IMG/VR virus record: IMGVR_UViG_3300027898_000011
Location: 1 to 54,116 of that record
Source of the DNA: a virus
Lineage: Duplodnaviria > Caudoviricetes
DNA: 54,116 nucleotides
Reading direction: 5' to 3' (one strand)
The notes below the pieces were generated by a model. That model was not told the origin of the DNA and did not search any database. It saw nothing but the letters and a program-made list of their open reading frames with translations. The translations under genes and the position numbers were made by a program. Shown one piece after another: positions 265 to 52,402 of this stretch; position 1 is the first letter of the stretch, and each line of letters begins with the position of its first letter.

Positions 265-1183
265 CCCCCTAAAACATTACAATTCGTAATCAAAACAAGT
301 CTCAAAACCTGAGATTTTGTTACGCATGCCGCACAAGTCTAGCATTCGAGCGCCTTTTGTAACGTAACGCACGCGGGCTTATCCGGCACCCCCTGCCAAG
401 CCGCTAGAATGCGCCAGGAAGCCGCTATAACGTTCTGGGGTGCTAGGGTAGCGACCCCCTCACTAACAATGGCTGTACGGCGATTCGTGTATATAACTGC
501 AAACTTTCGGACCATTTTACCACCTAGGGTTGCATTCTGCTACTTTTGCGCGAATCGTGTTAGTTAGCTAACAAAAGATAACACTTAAACCGTAACGGTG
601 GCCTGGCACCACCTAGCGTTGCATCCACCATAATGTAAGGATCACTCACATCCGCCTTGCAACCTGAACGCGAAAAGTTAAATCTCTTTTAACGTTACGC
701 AGTCTTGAAAGTGAGATTGCGCAATCCATATAACTAGACAGGCACGGCGCGTGGCATCGCCACCCAGCCCAGCCCCCTAAAAGCTAACGCACGTTATCAA
801 TTCCGCGCCGTATCATTGCGCGTAACGGTTTCGTTATGTTCCGGCTTGCTATCGGTCTAAAAAACTAGATGGTTTGTCTAAAAATCTGGATTTTGTCAAA
901 TTTTTCAGATTCTGCGCAATTTTTAGACGTTTGAGGCCAAAAACTTAGATTTTGTCTCGGATTTTGAGATTTTTCCAGATTTTTGGATGGCGGCGTCTCA
1001 AAATCGAGAAAACGTCTCGCCGGTTACAATTCGTCACATTTCTCCGTTTCCGGTGGGGGTGGTGTCGCATTGAGACTCAAAAAATTAAACGCTAAGCCAA
1101 ATCATACCATCGGCAAAAACCATTTTCATTTGACGATTTTGGCTCGGGGCCGAAAGCATAGGCTGGGCTGAAAATTTTGCAGT

Positions 1184-1507
1184 CTACCTGTCCGCATCAG
1201 TGCGGCGAGCCCAACCCCCTTGCTCAAGCGCTGTCCTTCGACTGTGGCAAGAATGACACAGCGTTCGTAGGTTACTTGGCTCTAAACGCAAATCTGGACG
1301 CGAGCGCACCGACTGGATGTGATCAACATCTGTTGCTTTTTTGCCACAGCAGCACGTCGGAAAGCGGGCCAGCATAACAACCCTAAGGCGCTTCCAATCA
1401 GCATCGTAGTCCTTCGCCTTCTGCGCGTTGCGCGCCCGCTCGTCCCCCGGAGCCCGATGGACCGGGCGCGGGCCTGATTTCCCGTGGCTGGGCGGCTGAA
1501 ACGGCAT
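1184..1507 (-). CDS. HNH endonuclease, HK97 gp74-like terminase accessory type
   Basis: W..LR...L...P.C..C....T.VDHI...NLRTLCHSCH motif; same strand as terS/terL. Confidence 0.9.
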   Translation of the reverse strand: MPFQPPSHGKSGPRPVHRAPGDERARNAQKAKDYDADWKRLRVVMLARFPTCCCGKKATDVDHIQSVRSRPDLRLEPSNLRTLCHSCHSRRTALEQGGWARRTDADR

Positions 1508-46712: not shown

Positions 46713-46795
46713 TGGTGCCCGTGGAGGGACTTGAACCCCCACTCCGAAAAAGCGGAGCTTAAATCCGCTGCGTCTACCAATTCCGCCACACGGGC
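46713..46795 (-). tRNA. trnL: tRNA-Leu(TAA)
   Basis: Cloverleaf; GCGGA-TTTAAGC-TCCGC anticodon arm; variable arm; encoded CCA. Confidence 0.93.
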
Positions 46796-46799
46796 TCTC

Positions 46800-46873
46800 T
46801 GGTTCCGGGGGCTGGATTTGAACCAACATAACAAAGACCAAAGCCTTGTGTCCTACCATTAGACGACCCCGGA
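46800..46873 (-). tRNA. trnQ: tRNA-Gln(TTG)
   Basis: CAAGG-CTTTGGT-CTTTG; GTTCAAATC; CCA. Confidence 0.9.
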
Positions 46874-46878
46874 ATATC

Positions 46879-46954
46879 TGGACCCCCAGACAGGACTCGA
46901 ACCTGCATCCTCCGAACTAGAAAATCAGCGCTCGCCCAGTTGAGCTACTGAGGG
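46879..46954 (-). tRNA. trnR: tRNA-Arg(TCT)
   Basis: CTGAT-TTTCTAG-TTCGG (weak stem); GTTCGAGTC; CCA. Confidence 0.82.
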
Positions 46955-46959
46955 TAAGC

Positions 46960-47035
46960 TGGCGTCCCTTGCAGGAGTCGAACCTACGTTTGCCCCCTGA
47001 GAAGGGGCTGTCCTAAGCCGCTAGACGAAAGGGAC
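46960..47035 (-). tRNA. trnE: tRNA-Glu(CTC)
   Basis: GCCCC-TTCTCAG-GGGGC; GTTCGACTC; CCA. Confidence 0.92.
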
Positions 47036-47040
47036 TAACT

Positions 47041-47116
47041 TGGAGCCCGGGGCGGGACTTGAACCCGCAACCTGCGGTTTACAAAACCGCTACTCTGCCA
47101 TTGAGCTACCCAGGGC
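47041..47116 (-). tRNA. trnT: tRNA-Thr(TGT)
   Basis: GCGGT-TTTGTAA-ACCGC; GTTCAAGTC; CCA; one bulged nt in the acceptor stem. Confidence 0.9.
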
Positions 47117-47256
47117 GTATTCGGTCGGTTGCAAGTATGGACCCATGCAACCGGAGGCCCGACGAGCCCCTTGTCAAAAAGCGGGTTCAGAGGGGAACTG
47201 TGCAAACCTCTGAACCCAAAGACCGTATCCGCCCACACGCCGACACGGCCTAACTT

Positions 47257-47346
47257 TGGCGCACGGGGTTGTCGAAGTCCCGCCGCCTATCCCTCCCTCA
47301 CATATGGGGGAGGGACTACCCGGGTGGAGTCAGGCCCGGGTCGTGT
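47257..47346 (-). ncRNA. tRNA-like cloverleaf RNA ending in CCA, non-canonical arms
   Basis: CACG/CGTG closing stem, 7-bp and 8-bp hairpins, TTCGA loop, 3' GCCA. Confidence 0.55.
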
Positions 47347-47423
47347 TGGTGGCGGGAACCGGATTTGAACCGGTAACCAAGTCGTTATGAGCGACCCGCT
47401 CTGCCTGATTGAGCTATCCCGCG
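47347..47423 (-). tRNA. trnM: tRNA-Met(CAT), with a 1:72 mismatch as in initiator tRNA
   Basis: GTCG-CTCATAA-CGAC; GTTCAAATC; ACCA. Confidence 0.9.
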
Positions 47424-47429
47424 TTTATA

Positions 47430-47505
47430 TGGCTGGCAAGGTAGGACTCGAACCTACGATGGGCACATTAACAGTGTGCTGCTTTACCGACTAAGCTACT
47501 TGCCA
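47430..47505 (-). tRNA. trnN: tRNA-Asn(GTT)
   Basis: GCACA-CTGTTAA-TGTGC; GTTCGAGTC; GCCA. Confidence 0.93.
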
Positions 47506-47982: not shown

Positions 47983-48552
47983 TTATAACCTACAAAAAAT
48001 AGTAACAACTCGGAACCGGTGGTTGGTGCTTTTTACCATGCCCACTACGCCTTCAATACGAAACGTATCCTTGCGGTACATCGGCAACACTTGATCCAGC
48101 CATACGACGTGAGCGCCGCTCTGCAAACGGCTTAAAGCCGCCATGACTTTGTTACGTTTCACCATAGTTGTTTGGTAGTGCTCGCAATCTTCTACGCTGT
48201 AAGGCGGATCGGCCAGCACCAGATCATAATTCTCTAGGGGCACCGCCAACAAGCTCTGGGCATCGTCAACGTAAGTAGCGCCTAGCTCGCCGTTAATGTC
48301 TACCGTATCGCCCGGCAGCACAGATTGATCTACCCGACCGCTAAACAAGTGCAGCACTGAGCTTTTGTCGGGAAAAAGCGCTTTTACCCGGCGAAGATAG
48401 CCCGCCGGGTAACCACCATAGTAGCCCGACTTAACCCGGTAATCTTGGCCCATAATCCACGTTCCGACGATCCGCCCGTCTTCTGAAACAAACAGAGAAC
48501 GCGGGTAGTCAGTTGTGGCAACATAGCTATCAACTCGATCTTGTAGGTTCAC
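47983..48552 (-). CDS. small SAM-dependent (N6-adenine type) methyltransferase
   Basis: Y.G.YP, VLHLFSG, VDIN, DLVLADPPY. Confidence 0.82.
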   Translation of the reverse strand: MNLQDRVDSYVATTDYPRSLFVSEDGRIVGTWIMGQDYRVKSGYYGGYPAGYLRRVKALFPDKSSVLHLFSGRVDQSVLPGDTVDINGELGATYVDDAQSLLAVPLENYDLVLADPPYSVEDCEHYQTTMVKRNKVMAALSRLQSGAHVVWLDQVLPMYRKDTFRIEGVVGMVKSTNHRFRVVTIFCRL

Positions 48553-48764
48553 GACGTTTCCTTTTTATAACGGCGATGCTCTTTCAGCAAAGCGGCAATC
48601 GCGGCTTCTTCGGTTTCCTCCATCTGCCGCCAATCTGTTAGCTTGTGATGCCACCGAAAGCCCGGGCCACGAGGATACAACTCGCCTACCAAACAAGGTC
48701 GCCCTTCGGCGTCTTCCTCGTATAGCAGCCAAAACGTATCTTCGTATTCTTCAAGCTTTATCAT
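48549..48764 (-). CDS. hypothetical protein
   Basis: ATGA/GTGA overlaps at both ends. Confidence 0.65.
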   Translation of the reverse strand: MIKLEEYEDTFWLLYEEDAEGRPCLVGELYPRGPGFRWHHKLTDWRQMEETEEAAIAALLKEHRRYKKETS

Positions 48765-51076
48765 ATAACTAACAATCCTCGACTCTCATAAGGCGACCGA
48801 ACCGGTCCGGTGTCCAAGGTGGCCCGGCCTACGCACATAATCAAGGCTACCGGACTATCGATTTTCTTACTTTCCTGTTCTTTTACCGGGTACACGTTGT
48901 CCTTGTTGTCCCGGCGCGACACCACGTTGCCAATTTGCCACGTCATAGGGTCCGAGGCACCGCAGTTATGGTGCAGCTTTCCGCCGATGATCCACGAGTC
49001 CAGCGTCTTCATAGGGTCCGACATGGTTTGAATCGTCTGGCGATACTCCACCATGTTGACGCCCTGCTCCATAAGGCGCGTGGCAACGTACGTGGCCTGG
49101 AACGGATCGTAGCAGCAATCCGCCACCGCAAACTTTTTACAGGCGTCCAGCACATCCTCTTCTATCCGGCTGTAGTCGATGATGTTGCCATCCGTTACGT
49201 CCAGCAAGCCCTCTTCGCGCCATTGCTGATAGTGCGCGTTTTTTGGGTCTTCTACTGTAAACTCTGGCAGATAAACCTTGCCGTAGCGAGCATAGTGACC
49301 GTCTCCGAGCGGGAACAGCATTTCCAGGGCGGCCAAGTCCACCTTGGAGGCCAAGTCAAGAGCGATCCAGCACCGCATACCACGCATAGACTCTAACGGT
49401 GGGGCTGCGGGACATTTAGCCCAAGACTCTACGTTGAAATAGGCTTGGCGGCTGTTAACCCACATATTCAGGTGCTTTGTCTTGAACCGGCCCTGGTCGC
49501 GCGGGTTGCGAATAGCCGCCTGCTGCATGTCAAGCAGGTATTCTTCACCCACCGACACACCCATGTTAGGGTTTGCTTTGCGTAGCGAAGCAGGATCGGC
49601 CCAATCGTCTGCCGGAAAGCTTACTTTAAGACCGGATTCGGTCCATTCTGCTGCCTGTGTTTTGCAAATATTCCAATGCCGCTCTGACGCCCTCTTCGCT
49701 ATCTCCAAGAAAGCCAATCGCCGCGTTGCACTGCCTGCAAAGCAGTCCCCTAACATTTCCTCCGCTGTGGCAGTGATCCACGCAAAGGTCTTTTTCCATT
49801 TTGCAGACGGGGCATCTTCCTTGACATTCCGAGTGTAACTTGTCGTATTGCTCAGAAGTAAGTCCGTATTTTCTAAGTCTGGCTCTTTCCCTAACGTATT
49901 CTCGATTGCCTTGCCTCCAACGCTCCGAATTGTTGTGTACGGCGTCTGGCTTCTCGTCGGCGTATTTTCGCCTAGCAAGTCTGAGATTTTCTTTTCGGGT
50001 CGGGCTTGTTCTAAGTAACTCTTTGTCGTAGCAATATTTGCAGAGTCCTTTGACCTTAGCGAGTCTGTCCGGGTGGTTGGGACAAGTGGGTTTGCCTTCG
50101 TCTGATTGCGCAGCGTGACAGCTTTTTCCTGACATATCTCTAACCAAGTGTCCTTTAGCCATTGCTCGTCTAACTGAGCACCATTGTCTACTAAAAATTT
50201 TAGCGCTTCTACCCCAGACAAATGAGCGTCGTAAGGCGCGGAGTCAAGCGTGTATATAAGGGCAAACGATCTTTCATCTTCTATAGCCCCAGACAAAACA
50301 TCTTGCATAACAAGTTGTTTGTTATAGCAAGGGCCTGCAAGATTATCACCAGCAGTAGTAATAATCCACAAAATAGGTTGGTCACGAGCGCCCATGCCTG
50401 TGATCATTGTGTCGTGGGCTTCAGAAGTATCGTGCTGGTGATACTCGTCAATCGCAGCAAAACTAGGGCTAGAACCATCCCCCGGCTTGCCAATAACAGG
50501 CTCAAACTTGCTGTTAGTTGCTGGTATGTTAATATTGCTAGCATTAACTCTTATGCCTTTGGCGGCCATCAAGTTAGGGCTATTGGCCACCATAGTTTTA
50601 GCGGGATTAAAAACTTCCCATGCTTGTTTTTCAGTGGTGGCGTTACAATAAATCTCTGCGCCGTTTTCGTTGTCGTATGCAAGCATGTAGACGCCAACAC
50701 CAGCAGTCAACAGAGACTTGCCATTTTTTCTCGGTATCAAAATGAAAACTTCGCGGAACCGTCGAAACCCGGTGCGCCGGTCCACCCAGCCAAACACCGA
50801 GCAAATAATGAACGCTTCCCAGGGTTCTAGGTGAATTAGCTCTTTGGACGCCGCCCACTTACCTTTGGTGTGAGGCAGTAGCTCCACCACCTTGCAGGGC
50901 CGCTCTGCCTTGACCGGATCAAACACCCAGCGAAAACCGCCTTGCTCTGCCCGCAGCATGTCGTTTTTATGCCGCTGGCAGGCAAGACGGACCCACCTGC
51001 AAGCGGGCTCTTTGCCGCTCAGCACGTCTTCTACATACTGAAACGCTTTGGTTACGTTAGGCGTTTTGTCGGTCAT
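48761..51076 (-). CDS. terL: terminase large subunit (Terminase_1 / HK97-type) with ~210-aa in-frame insertion
   Basis: PRKNGKS (Walker A), IDEYH (Walker B), ITTAG, KANPN.G, LDLAS..D, KID..VA. Confidence 0.95.
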   Translation of the reverse strand: MTDKTPNVTKAFQYVEDVLSGKEPACRWVRLACQRHKNDMLRAEQGGFRWVFDPVKAERPCKVVELLPHTKGKWAASKELIHLEPWEAFIICSVFGWVDRRTGFRRFREVFILIPRKNGKSLLTAGVGVYMLAYDNENGAEIYCNATTEKQAWEVFNPAKTMVANSPNLMAAKGIRVNASNINIPATNSKFEPVIGKPGDGSSPSFAAIDEYHQHDTSEAHDTMITGMGARDQPILWIITTAGDNLAGPCYNKQLVMQDVLSGAIEDERSFALIYTLDSAPYDAHLSGVEALKFLVDNGAQLDEQWLKDTWLEICQEKAVTLRNQTKANPLVPTTRTDSLRSKDSANIATTKSYLEQARPEKKISDLLGENTPTRSQTPYTTIRSVGGKAIENTLGKEPDLENTDLLLSNTTSYTRNVKEDAPSAKWKKTFAWITATAEEMLGDCFAGSATRRLAFLEIAKRASERHWNICKTQAAEWTESGLKVSFPADDWADPASLRKANPNMGVSVGEEYLLDMQQAAIRNPRDQGRFKTKHLNMWVNSRQAYFNVESWAKCPAAPPLESMRGMRCWIALDLASKVDLAALEMLFPLGDGHYARYGKVYLPEFTVEDPKNAHYQQWREEGLLDVTDGNIIDYSRIEEDVLDACKKFAVADCCYDPFQATYVATRLMEQGVNMVEYRQTIQTMSDPMKTLDSWIIGGKLHHNCGASDPMTWQIGNVVSRRDNKDNVYPVKEQESKKIDSPVALIMCVGRATLDTGPVRSPYESRGLLVI
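49626..50162 (-). CDS. endonuclease VII-family HNH (homing-type) endonuclease nested out of frame in terL
   Basis: GLC..CY; KYGLT.EQY..L...Q.G.C.VC; VDHCH..G.VRGLLC..CN...G...D; YL. Confidence 0.88.
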   Translation of the reverse strand: MAKGHLVRDMSGKSCHAAQSDEGKPTCPNHPDRLAKVKGLCKYCYDKELLRTSPTRKENLRLARRKYADEKPDAVHNNSERWRQGNREYVRERARLRKYGLTSEQYDKLHSECQGRCPVCKMEKDLCVDHCHSGGNVRGLLCRQCNAAIGFLGDSEEGVRAALEYLQNTGSRMDRIRS

Positions 51077-51390
51077 GCGCGGCGCTTAGGCGGCTCCGGT
51101 GGGGTTGGCGGCTCTTCAGGGCGCAACGATCTGATCGGCGTCAAGTGGCCAGGAACCTTGGTAGGGCTAGGGCCATAATGCTTCTCAATCGTCGCGTAGA
51201 GCGCTTTGCGGGCTTCCATTTCAGCCACCGACAAGACAGCGAAGCGAGTCTTAATCAGATGACCTTGTGGGTTCAGCGCGCCGTCTTTGTCGGCTAGATG
51301 ATTGCCGTGCTCGTCCACCCACTCGCGGTGCTCCACCGCGTCGTAAGCGCGCCACCAGACAACCAGCGCGTCTTCAATCTCAGCGTGCAT
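51073..51390 (-). CDS. hypothetical protein
   Basis: ATGA overlap with the terL start. Confidence 0.7.
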   Translation of the reverse strand: MHAEIEDALVVWWRAYDAVEHREWVDEHGNHLADKDGALNPQGHLIKTRFAVLSVAEMEARKALYATIEKHYGPSPTKVPGHLTPIRSLRPEEPPTPPEPPKRRA

Positions 51391-51823
51391 CGCCAAACGT
51401 CCCGGCTGCTTCGTAATTGCCATAAACCCATTGCTCTAGGTTGTTCACGCGATTGACGGTGCTGCTTACAACGTCACCGCAGTAGTCGGACCACCCGCAT
51501 AAACTTTCGATTTGCTCCGAATGGTCGTTAACAAGCGGGGCGAGCGTGCCAATACGATCCGTCAAAGCGATCACAAGACGTTCAAGATCGGCCACCCTGG
51601 CTTCTAGCTTGGCTTTATCCACAACATCGCTGTCGTAATCCATATCACTATCTCCAAGAAGGCGAGTTGCCCGCGCTTCCTCACGGACGCTAACCCAGCC
51701 TTTGTCCCACGCTCTATAAGAAGCCGCCTGGGTTTGCGCATCATAAGGGTTACTTTGAATTGAACAGTGGTTTGCAAAAGCCCATTCACCATCTTGGTAG
51801 GCTAAACTTTGTTTGACGTTCAT
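51380..51823 (-). CDS. protein with N-terminal RMF-like motif and coiled coil
   Basis: AYQDG..A.......NPY.......AW.KGW; AGGAG RBS. Confidence 0.7.
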   Translation of the reverse strand: MNVKQSLAYQDGEWAFANHCSIQSNPYDAQTQAASYRAWDKGWVSVREEARATRLLGDSDMDYDSDVVDKAKLEARVADLERLVIALTDRIGTLAPLVNDHSEQIESLCGWSDYCGDVVSSTVNRVNNLEQWVYGNYEAAGTFGDAR

Positions 51824-51824
51824 A

Positions 51825-52247
51825 TTAGACTCCTATGTTCTTTGGTTTGACGCAGGACGCAAGGAACCTGCGTATATCTGTCTCAGCCTCATCAAACGCC
51901 TTATAGGCGGCGTTGGTGGGTTCTAGGCTTGATTCTATCGTTTCAGCCGCTTCGGCCCACCGTAACAAGACTTCCATCAGCTTGCGCGAGCGCCCTGGTT
52001 TTGGCGTTCGGTATTGCACGCCCCGGGATATAAGCGGCGCATCGCCTGGGCGCACAGGATCGTCCAGCAGGGATTCCAGCACGTCATCCGCAACCGCGTA
52101 TAGGTTGGCGCTGGCTTTCGCTAACCCCGCTGTAGCCGCGTCTTTTCGTAGCTCTGCCGTCAAGCTCCCATCCGTCTTATTAGCGTCTCGCAACGCCTCA
52201 TACGCATTCAACCATAACGACAAAGCTACGCGAAGATCGGCGTTCAC
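51825..52247 (-). CDS. hypothetical helical protein
   Basis: GAGG RBS before GTG 52247. Confidence 0.65.
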   Translation of the reverse strand: MNADLRVALSLWLNAYEALRDANKTDGSLTAELRKDAATAGLAKASANLYAVADDVLESLLDDPVRPGDAPLISRGVQYRTPKPGRSRKLMEVLLRWAEAAETIESSLEPTNAAYKAFDEAETDIRRFLASCVKPKNIGV

Positions 52248-52402
52248 CCGTGATCCTCTCCCGAACCCGCAACATAAGCGAGAAGCGTTAGATACCAAAA
52301 GAACCCGGTGACGAGCAACCAAAAAGCTCCGTGGATCATAGTTCCTCTCCTATGCAGACTACTGCTATAACAATACATATAACAACAGTCATTAAAACTT
52401 GG

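Follow-up and report, generated by a model that had tools for sequence, protein, structure and literature searches.

An endonuclease VII-type HNH gene nested in the open terL frame of a tailed phage: a candidate homing-type element without recognisable splicing

Actinophage inteins, many of which are located in the terminase gene terL, can contain an endonuclease VII-like nuclease gene in frame 3 relative to the intein (Gosselin et al. 2025, bioRxiv 10.1101/2025.01.02.630785). According to that preprint, the second open reading frame (ORF) typically lies outside a splicing domain that is well conserved and excises the insert from the protein; these inteins are the closest published case to the locus considered here. 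A cyanobacterial dnaX intein with an out-of-frame LAGLIDADG homing endonuclease has also been described, with purifying selection reported on the nuclease frame and a relaxed host frame across the overlap (Phillips, DeSimone & Gogarten, bioRxiv 10.64898/2026.09.14.751524). The subject of the present article is an insert in terL, the gene for the large terminase subunit (TerL), of a tailed phage represented by an IMG/VR virus record of 54,116 bases (IMGVR_UViG_3300027898_000011; estimated completeness 96%). This whole stretch is referred to below as the window. Its terL gene remains open throughout the insert, and a complete endonuclease VII-type HNH gene is nested there in another frame.

The ways of living in an essential gene recognised so far are introns, inteins, and intergenic or gene-splitting sites. 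The prevailing view, to our knowledge, is that selfish nucleases persist in essential genes only with the repair provided by an intron or intein, or else stay intergenic. The insert described here is probably a homing-type mobile element that lies in frame in terL and undergoes neither RNA nor protein splicing. The balance of probability also tips, though slightly, toward a more general interpretation, namely that homing endonuclease genes have a fourth lifestyle in an essential gene, in which the element is translated through, with a stop-free host frame and a self-closing ‘bandage’ module, and uses neither a ribozyme nor protein splicing. A first-pass annotation of the window had proposed such a splicing-free selfish element in terL; as far as sequence analysis reaches, the proposal is supported by the existence of a family of carriers, by stop depletion, and by searches that found no intron or intein.

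The host gene is an HK97-type terL, the product of which contains a TerL_ATPase domain at residues 85-253 (Pfam PF03354, E 1.7e-33) and a TerL_nuclease domain at residues 490-753 (PF20441, E 5.1e-46). Its AlphaFold2 model resembles HK97 TerL 6z6d (Foldseek E 5.8e-27), and the insert-free relative P0002 matches 6z6d in a phmmer search at 1.3e-34. The ORF list confirms the earlier statement that terL is one unbroken frame of 771 aa. Alignment with insert-free homologues, which had been suggested as the way to fix the boundaries, places the insert exactly between D278 and P488; the roughly 210 extra codons noted after FALIYTLD are present, with the start of the interval refined from 49610 to 49616 (209 codons, 49616-50242). 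The closest database relative of this TerL, P0002 (561 aa, 82% identity), has no insert, and 40 of the 40 phage TerLs among the matches listed (2438 matching records) align in two pieces that bypass it. In alleles of the P0002 type and of the type of L004, an insert-free IMG/VR locus, the empty site reads ...TACACNNTNGAY/CCNGANGAYGAYTGG..., where the slash marks the point of insertion. The insert has a GC content of 0.486 as compared with 0.524 in the remaining terL, and its translation in the terL frame matches no Pfam family at E<=0.1.

The complete 178-aa ORF that had been assigned to the endonuclease VII-type HNH proteins at 49626-50162 is borne out by the ORF list, Pfam and PHROG. Its start is offset from that of terL by 914 nt, which is 2 modulo 3 and corresponds to frame 3 of terL on the same strand. 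The product matches Endonuclease_7 (PF02945) over residues 94-168 with 69.6 bits against a cut-off of 23.6 (E 2.1e-19), and PHROG endonuclease VII families match it down to 2e-32. A zinc-finger-like motif, C..HPD..(7)..G.C..CY, is located near the N-terminus, and the C-terminal core CVDHCH...RGLLCRQCN is invariant or nearly invariant in alignments of 5 and 13 sequences. We take the residues of this core to be the catalytic or metal-binding Cys, His and Asn of the C-x-D-H-C-H ... C-x-x-C-N motif. Within the insert of the window, the ORF is preceded by 80 nt, as reported before, and followed by 10 nt, not by the 16 nt given earlier. A purine stretch of the GGA/GAC type, located 8-10 nt before the HNH ATG, may act as a weak ribosome binding site.

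Mis-assembly, which the first-pass annotation had named as a reason to abandon its proposal, was considered and rejected. It is unlikely because a single contig of the likely source run X1, spanning 49523-51500 at depth 18, covers the whole insert and both junctions without joints; moreover, 13 other IMG/VR contigs show the same layout. This DNA is present in contigs of three freshwater runs, one of which spans the insert; no RNA run was found to contain it. No joints were seen in the contigs of these three runs, and no insert-free allele was found in runs X2 and X3, which hold only short identical pieces. At 49523-49552, which is 64-93 nt downstream of the 3' junction of the insert, the two Logan contigs from the likely source run end in an overlap, and no variant or joint accounts for this break.

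The same-site insert was found, in addition to the window, in 12 further distinct IMG/VR sequences (13 contigs) and in six database proteins. The observation is thereby confirmed and extended to a family, and the other terL genes with nested endonuclease VII ORFs for which a search had been recommended do exist (13 distinct DNA sequences, window included). IMG/VR was queried with P0008, with a terL-frame profile of the insert, and with a profile of the nested HNH proteins, which together gave the carriers L002 (= L094, L103), L095 (= L101), L096 (= L104), L097 (= L102), L098, L099, L105, L106, L107, L108, L109 and L110; L100 is identical to L099 and lies on a second contig. The database carriers are P0008 (791 aa), P0114 (775 aa) and P0272-P0275 (763-772 aa), the last four having been added by the last profile search. 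Across carriers the insert measures 181-225 codons, the GC content ranges from 0.37 to 0.61, and pairwise TerL identity ranges from 26 to 98%. The insertion site is constant in 18 of the 18 sequences with junctions examined (P0275 excluded); it follows the D of ...(Y/F)-(T/G/A/E)-x-D and precedes D-D-W by two residues. The geometry is also similar, with 59-65 nt before the HNH start in the other carriers against 80 in the window and with at most 25 nt of insert after the HNH stop, which falls just past the insert in two cases.

The scan of IMG/VR with the HNH profile provided a broader view of this nuclease group, as 558 stretches encode relatives, of which the best 80 were kept. The top 13 of these 80 loci all lie within terL and share one relative frame, and tblastn with the window TerL passes through each of the 13 as one segment. 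Among the remaining 67 kept loci, only L130 has a TerL match; it was rejected as a nested case, as its HNH gene lies directly upstream of a terL-like gene and outside it. Several other searches returned nothing further: an IMG/VR scan with the window HNH as a single-protein query gave no match, a word-based search with the insert region alone returned only the query itself, 50,697 phage records gave no tblastn match to the terL-frame insert, and megablast of terL against phages gave none either. A Klebsiella phage match (H57) listed ‘under a tail protein’ was rejected as nested, being an unannotated ORF between two tail genes. In Klebsiella phage vB_Kpn16-P3 (L259, PP848843.1), an unannotated endonuclease VII-like ORF at 2501-2992 lies between genes annotated ‘tail protein’ and ‘tail spike protein’ and shares ~110 nt with the end of the former.

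The property that sets these loci apart is the openness of the host frame. Across the HNH ORF, the terL frame contains no stop in 12 of the 13 distinct DNA sequences and a single TAG in the thirteenth (L096/L104), which is the depletion that the first-pass annotation had proposed to look for in other carriers; the third frame of the same sequences contains 4-22 stops. Database proteins were not counted in this comparison, being open by construction. The control set consisted of the free-standing loci of the same HNH-profile scan, in which the ORF was identifiable in 65 of 67. None of these 65 endonuclease VII ORFs is stop-free in the equivalent (+1) frame, and the median is 7.6 stops per 180 codons. 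In the window itself, the +1 frame of 34 long genes contains stops at 0.043 per codon, and no open run elsewhere exceeds 129 codons; this rate and the control median both agree with the earlier estimate of about 8 expected stops. When the HNH protein was held fixed, 1.3-3.4 stops were expected in five carriers, and the probability of observing no more stops than were seen was 0.006 (window), 0.06, 0.008, 0.04 and 0.19. One sequence is therefore only suggestive of stop depletion, and the family and the control carry the point.

The exceptional TAG occupies positions 1629-1631 of L096, an AT-rich phage contig (shared with L104), and in-frame ATG codons follow it 20 and 27 codons later. This copy may represent a broken gene, a sequencing error or a natural split TerL. 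Recoding of TAG was rejected because TAG terminates two other ORFs of the same contig.

Selection can be followed in both reading frames. The nested HNH is, to judge from substitution patterns, a maintained gene under purifying selection, because the differences between L095 and L097 concentrate at the third position of HNH codons (38/21/65 at positions 1/2/3). In the terL exons of this pair, the third position of terL codons holds 118 of 165 and 109 of 165 differences. Constraint in the terL frame was assessed against a null drawn from 11 distant lineages, in which synonymous HNH codons were shuffled within each sequence in 150 replicates, shuffles with more terL-frame stops than observed were rejected, and conservation was scored with BLOSUM62. 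The observed conservation exceeds all shuffles (0/150 as high) for residues 451-484 (z 13.7), 306-326 (z 4.1) and 411-450 (z 3.8), and is not above the null for residues 327-410 (z 1.8, 5/150 as high).

Wobble positions follow the same division. Between L101 and L102, the wobble positions of HNH codons differ in 57% of codons in the centre (residues 327-410) and in 15-18% in residues 280-326, 411-450 and 451-484, with terL exon third positions differing at 38-39% in the same comparison. At conserved residues, wobble identity reaches 0.60 near the 3' end (alignment columns 200-226) versus 0.44 in the terL exons. Outside the HNH ORF, identity by terL codon position has a coding-like order both in the 5' flank (0.31/0.45/0.28) and in the last eight insert codons (0.29/0.38/0.26). 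On this sequence evidence, ~48 N-terminal and ~75 C-terminal residues appear to be under dual-coding constraint, and ~85 central residues appear to form an unconstrained linker. The earlier impression that the terL-frame overlap looks like an off-frame reading is thus apt for the central ~85 residues and fails for the ~48 N-terminal and ~75 C-terminal ones.

Structure prediction gives a comparable partition. The AlphaFold2 model of the 771-aa TerL, built from a 111-sequence alignment, has a mean pLDDT (the predicted value of the local distance difference test) of 85.5, with the TerL parts above 90. In residues 279-326, a strand (282-286) and two helices (288-297 and 304-326) are predicted, the strand and the first helix at pLDDT 86-87. 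Residues 411-450 are modelled as helices at pLDDT 55-71, and residues 451-487 at 79-93 as helices followed by strands 476-479 and 482-487. A run with the insert only, using 14 sequences, produced the same pattern. The high-confidence regions coincide with those under dual-coding constraint, the two measures not being fully independent. No PDB match to the module fold was found by Foldseek at E<=0.001 (best E 1.0), and VIA-align against 48,161 chains returned generic helical proteins only, with a best Z of 4.5. The suggestion that the short flanks form a scaffold is supported by the predicted folded ends, the predicted terminal beta-strands, and the coding-type conservation in the terL frame.

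The distribution of the insert corresponds to that of a mobile element. With carrier status judged by ORF or match length, carriers make up 1 of the 80 closest IMG/VR terL relatives of P0008, 0 of 12 for P0114, and 0 of 80 for P0002. The carrier L002 and the empty locus L004 are 92.7% identical in terL DNA, and in L002 the 648-nt insert separates ...GTCGAC from CCAGAA... precisely, without loss or duplication of host bases relative to L004. Judging from these two sequences, gain or loss of the insert between them was recent. Insert GC lies 4-10 points under that of the flanking terL in 5 of the 5 loci measured. Similarity of the HNH proteins is partly coupled to that of the TerLs (Spearman 0.49, 78 pairs); for instance, the L107 HNH is 53% identical to that of L103, and the L107 TerL is at most 35% identical to any other carrier TerL. 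Sporadic presence among close relatives, a fixed site and exact insertion, by which a homing element is recognised, are all found here.

The DNA next to the insertion site of L002 was compared with that of L004 as well. The 24 nt just downstream of the site (L002 3540-3563) differ at 5 positions, 4 of them synonymous, which is above average, and these differences may represent a co-conversion tract or site-protecting changes. Next to the junction there are 7 differences in 48 nt against 7.3% overall, which is too few sites to call co-conversion.

The main rival to an unspliced element is a novel form of protein-level processing, one version of the alternative that the first-pass annotation had named. 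The insert would then be removed post-translationally by an undescribed step, for example by an unconventional self-splicing or self-cleaving domain assembled from the conserved end modules, and the open frame would serve a precursor only. Several observations agree with such a route: it demands an open frame, as is seen; both terL-frame ends are conserved beyond what the HNH frame demands and are predicted to be folded; the C-terminal module contains well-conserved His, Ser, Thr and Cys; and the published elements closest to this one, in which an endonuclease VII gene lies out of frame in terL, belong to the inteins. The end residues, however, are of the wrong kind. Inteins begin with Cys, Ser or Ala, end with His-Asn (or Gln/Asp), and are followed by Cys, Ser or Thr. 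Here the insert is followed by P (12), G (2), D (2) or E (2), with C/S/T in 0 of 18 sequences; the last insert residue is Asn in 0 of 18 and is not conserved; and the first is S (9), T (2) or another (7), with Cys in 0 of 18. The earlier remark that there is no intein end holds for all 18 of these sequences.

Profile searches point in the same direction. Pfam detected no intein or Hint family at E<=1 in 14 of 14 inserts, and a PDB profile search with the inserts gave 0 matches at E<=10. The Hint fold is all-beta, in contrast to the AlphaFold2 prediction, which is predominantly helical with short strands at the ends and of low confidence in the middle, and the low Z of the best structural match weighs against this rival too. 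The Rfam intron and intein profile searches that had been recommended thus found neither (Rfam, Pfam, PDB). On this evidence, protein-level removal is unlikely, although it survives better than the explanations that follow.

Another explanation assumes that the insert, or its terL-frame module, has been co-opted by the phage, either to modulate the packaging motor or to shield TerL from host sensors, and is kept for that purpose rather than for homing. The dual-coding constraint on ~120 terL-frame residues would suit such a role, as would a geometry that is conserved across carriers with TerLs only 26-53% identical. The complex of the sensor Avs3 with a phage terminase (8dgc_E) is also among the fold matches of the TerL model, which shows only that such sensors exist. 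Against co-option stand the rarity and scattered occurrence of the insert among close relatives (the 1/80, 0/12 and 0/80 above), the nearly identical terL without it in L004, and an insert GC unlike that of the host gene. Purifying selection on the nuclease would moreover be needless for a purely structural role, and co-option is accordingly rated as somewhat less probable than protein-level removal.

It is very improbable that the nested HNH is the packaging-associated nuclease of HK97-like terminases, in the role of gp74, nested for joint production with terL. The TerL is indeed of the HK97 type, and HK97-like phages are said, in an account attributed to Kala et al. 2014, to use an HNH protein together with the terminase. 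This assignment is argued against because the record has a separate canonical HNH (PF01844) at 1232-1348; furthermore, the nested protein belongs to PF02945 and not to PF01844, and most relatives package without the insert.

At the RNA level, a permissive Rfam scan of 48700-51200 found no intron at E<=10 and one chance match outside the insert (E 6.4), and at 12 further loci it gave three matches at E<=1, none of them an intron and none within an insert. RNAalifold with 13 sequences gave 0 pairs and 0 kcal/mol at the 5' junction and no conserved structure at the 3' junction (-1.13 kcal/mol; 11 pairs, of which 2 show compensatory change). Removal by an unrecognised intron, or a ribosomal bypass or frameshift that skips the insert or fuses the N-terminal part of TerL to the HNH, is the least probable of all: phage homing nucleases are classically intron-borne, and in the window no stop interrupts the HNH frame in the 27 codons upstream of its ATG, yet such removal is disfavoured because it would leave unexplained a terL frame that it does not need to be open and that is open in 12/13 carriers against 0/65 controls, the junctions lack both a known intron and covariation, the HNH ORF leaves only 59-80 nt free on one side and at most 25 nt on the other, an HNH-frame stop falls inside the 5' flank in at least 6 of 13 carriers, and no shared slippery site was seen. 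As a separate observation, L098 has a near-threshold match to the Rfam family DUF3800-VIII RNA at 523-586 (+), upstream of its terminase genes (36 bits against a gathering score of 40.2, E 0.007).

An unspliced homing-type element could operate as follows. Translation of the HNH nuclease would begin at a start codon of its own, in frame 3 of terL, and the enzyme would cut insert-free terL alleles at the conserved ...Y-T-x-D/P-x-D-D-W site during co-infection, after which repair from the carrier allele would copy the insert into the cut one. Without removal, ribosomes reading terL would pass through the insert. Because in this proposal nothing removes the insert and ribosomes must traverse it, selection would keep the terL frame stop-free over ~180 overlapping codons and would maintain a two-part module, with ~48 initial and ~75 final residues connected through a disordered ~85-residue linker. 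The module is predicted to fold on itself, its two ends possibly packing together, and TerL would be left undisturbed by the 209 extra residues, suspended from a surface loop of its ATPase domain. The step from an open frame and the lack of a recognisable splicing element to a 771-aa protein that is the working terminase seems rather probable, but not more than that.

Several points weigh against this interpretation. The full-length protein is a prediction from the genes, and 209 residues inserted in the ATPase domain of an essential motor are a heavy load, which is the usual argument that such inserts must be removed. The test on the window alone is weakened when the HNH protein is held fixed by synonymous shuffling, as 3.4-3.6 stops are then expected and the probability of none is 0.006-0.013. 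The in-frame TAG of L096/L104 interrupts the central linker, and elsewhere on that contig TAG ends genes; either this copy is broken or a strictly open frame is unnecessary. If it is a natural split TerL, the module might hold the two parts together. AlphaFold2 confidence may partly mirror alignment conservation imposed by the HNH frame, wobble conservation could in principle serve a nucleotide-level function instead of a terL-frame protein, and the conserved H, S, T and C residues of the C-terminal module (an H-S-x-T-C stretch) leave room for other chemistry. The HNH tree, a quick one of 54 rows made after removal of exact duplicates and of sequences shorter than 120 aa, has weak resolution: 11 of the 13 nested HNHs group together with 4 long-branch outsiders (Shimodaira-Hasegawa-like approximate likelihood ratio test 84), and L105 and L108 lie elsewhere; the tree is compatible with a single origin. 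Finally, scans of JGI metagenomes and GTDB genomes with the terL-frame profile A3 gave 596 and 403 pattern stretches, among which no further copy was confirmed. The coordinates of the locus are collected in Table 1.

Table 1. Parts of the terL locus of the window, with the basis of each assignment
Feature	Position	Strand	Basis or remark
terL, HK97-type large terminase subunit	48761..51076	minus	single open frame, 771 aa, insert included
terL part 1, ATPase core, aa 1-278, ends ...FALIYTLD	50243..51076	minus	aligned to insert-free relatives
Insert, 627 nt, 209 codons, in terL frame	49616..50242	minus	boundaries from alignment with insert-free relatives
Insert 5' flank before HNH start, 80 nt, reads SAPYDAHLSGVEALKFLVDNGAQLDEQ in terL frame	50163..50242	minus	geometry and sequences
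Nested endonuclease VII-type HNH gene, 178 aa	49626..50162	minus	frame 3 relative to terL, Pfam PF02945
N-terminal module, aa 279-326, predicted folded	50099..50242	minus	pLDDT 80-87; conservation above null for aa 306-326
Central linker, aa 327-410, S/T/K/R-rich, predicted disordered, apparently kept only stop-free	49847..50098	minus	pLDDT <50 for 328-409
C-terminal module, aa 411-487, predicted helices then two short strands ending ...GLKVSF, overlaps HNH catalytic core	49616..49846	minus	AlphaFold2, conservation
terL part 2, aa 488-771, begins PADDWADPASLRKANPN; remaining ATPase domain and nuclease domain	48761..49615	minus	Pfam and alignments

The surroundings of the gene contain further features. 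A 189-aa DNA methyltransferase (47983-48552, minus strand; PHROG 3816, 2.9e-43; DPPY motif) is encoded directly downstream of terL, in the place usually occupied by the portal gene. Just downstream of terL and this methyltransferase, seven tRNA genes are located at 46713-47505 on the minus strand (Leu-taa, Gln-ttg, Arg-tct, Glu-ctc, Thr-tgt, Met-cat and Asn-gtt). Upstream of terL, three ORFs (51073-52322) have no PHROG match, and the small terminase subunit was not found among them. The canonical HNH motif at 1232..1348 (minus strand; 32.6 bits, above the cut-off) belongs to an open frame of 111 codons towards the other end of the record and may be the packaging-associated HNH of HK97-like phages.

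If the unspliced interpretation is correct, splicing would be dispensable for a nuclease in an essential gene, as the element would stay in frame and the packaging ATPase would tolerate it as a ~210-residue loop. The locus would also be a natural case of ~180 codons of same-strand dual coding in which selection can be measured in both frames, and it would point to a way in which free-standing nucleases could give rise to new insertion domains or new inteins. In practical terms, it would indicate a permissive site in HK97-type terminases for engineering. For annotation, it is a warning that a long terL may conceal an entire nuclease gene that is missing from gene calls on account of its full overlap.

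A literature search found no report of an intein-less, intron-less, translated-through nuclease insert, although the supplementary tables of the actinophage study, outside that search, may list such cases; no terminase-nested HNH was found among the matches listed (40 of 1820 phage records). The actinophage inteins, as described, have in common with the present inserts an endonuclease VII-like nuclease in frame 3 on the same strand, often terL as the host gene, no recognisable nuclease in the host-frame overlap, and a sporadic distribution with closely related empty alleles. Compared by description and not by sequence, they differ in that the present inserts have no intein domain (14/14), no splice-end residues (0/18), a host-frame module predicted to be helical, and only 59-80 nt and at most 25 nt outside the HNH ORF. 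Measured against a non-canonical intein with an out-of-frame endonuclease VII, the frame-3, same-strand arrangement is found in 13 of 13 DNA sequences, and the nuclease ORF lies within no recognisable intein splicing domain. The dnaX case likewise combines a nuclease overlapping the host-frame reading with frame-dependent selection and sporadic presence; it differs in being an intein of a gene on a bacterial chromosome and in having a LAGLIDADG nuclease, while here an HNH gene without an intein lies in a phage terL, the host frame of which appears to be partly constrained.

Comparison with HK97-type TerL (6z6d) reveals the same two domains and fold, and neither HK97 TerL, in which the site corresponds to ...HVYEAPKD/AD..., nor the 40 listed phage TerLs have an insert at this loop. 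Free-standing endonuclease VII or HNH homing-type genes are of the same nuclease kind, with their own start codon and without a ribozyme or intein of their own; the closest isolates' proteins, among the matches listed, are annotated as endonuclease VII and are at most 38% identical to the nested HNH. A homing-type gene embedded in and splitting its host gene is reportedly represented by mobE in nrdA of phage Aeh1, in work attributed to Gibb & Edgell 2007. Free-standing genes lie between genes or split the host into two polypeptides, and their +1 frame is rich in stops (0/65 stop-free), whereas the host gene of the nested HNH described here is one open frame.

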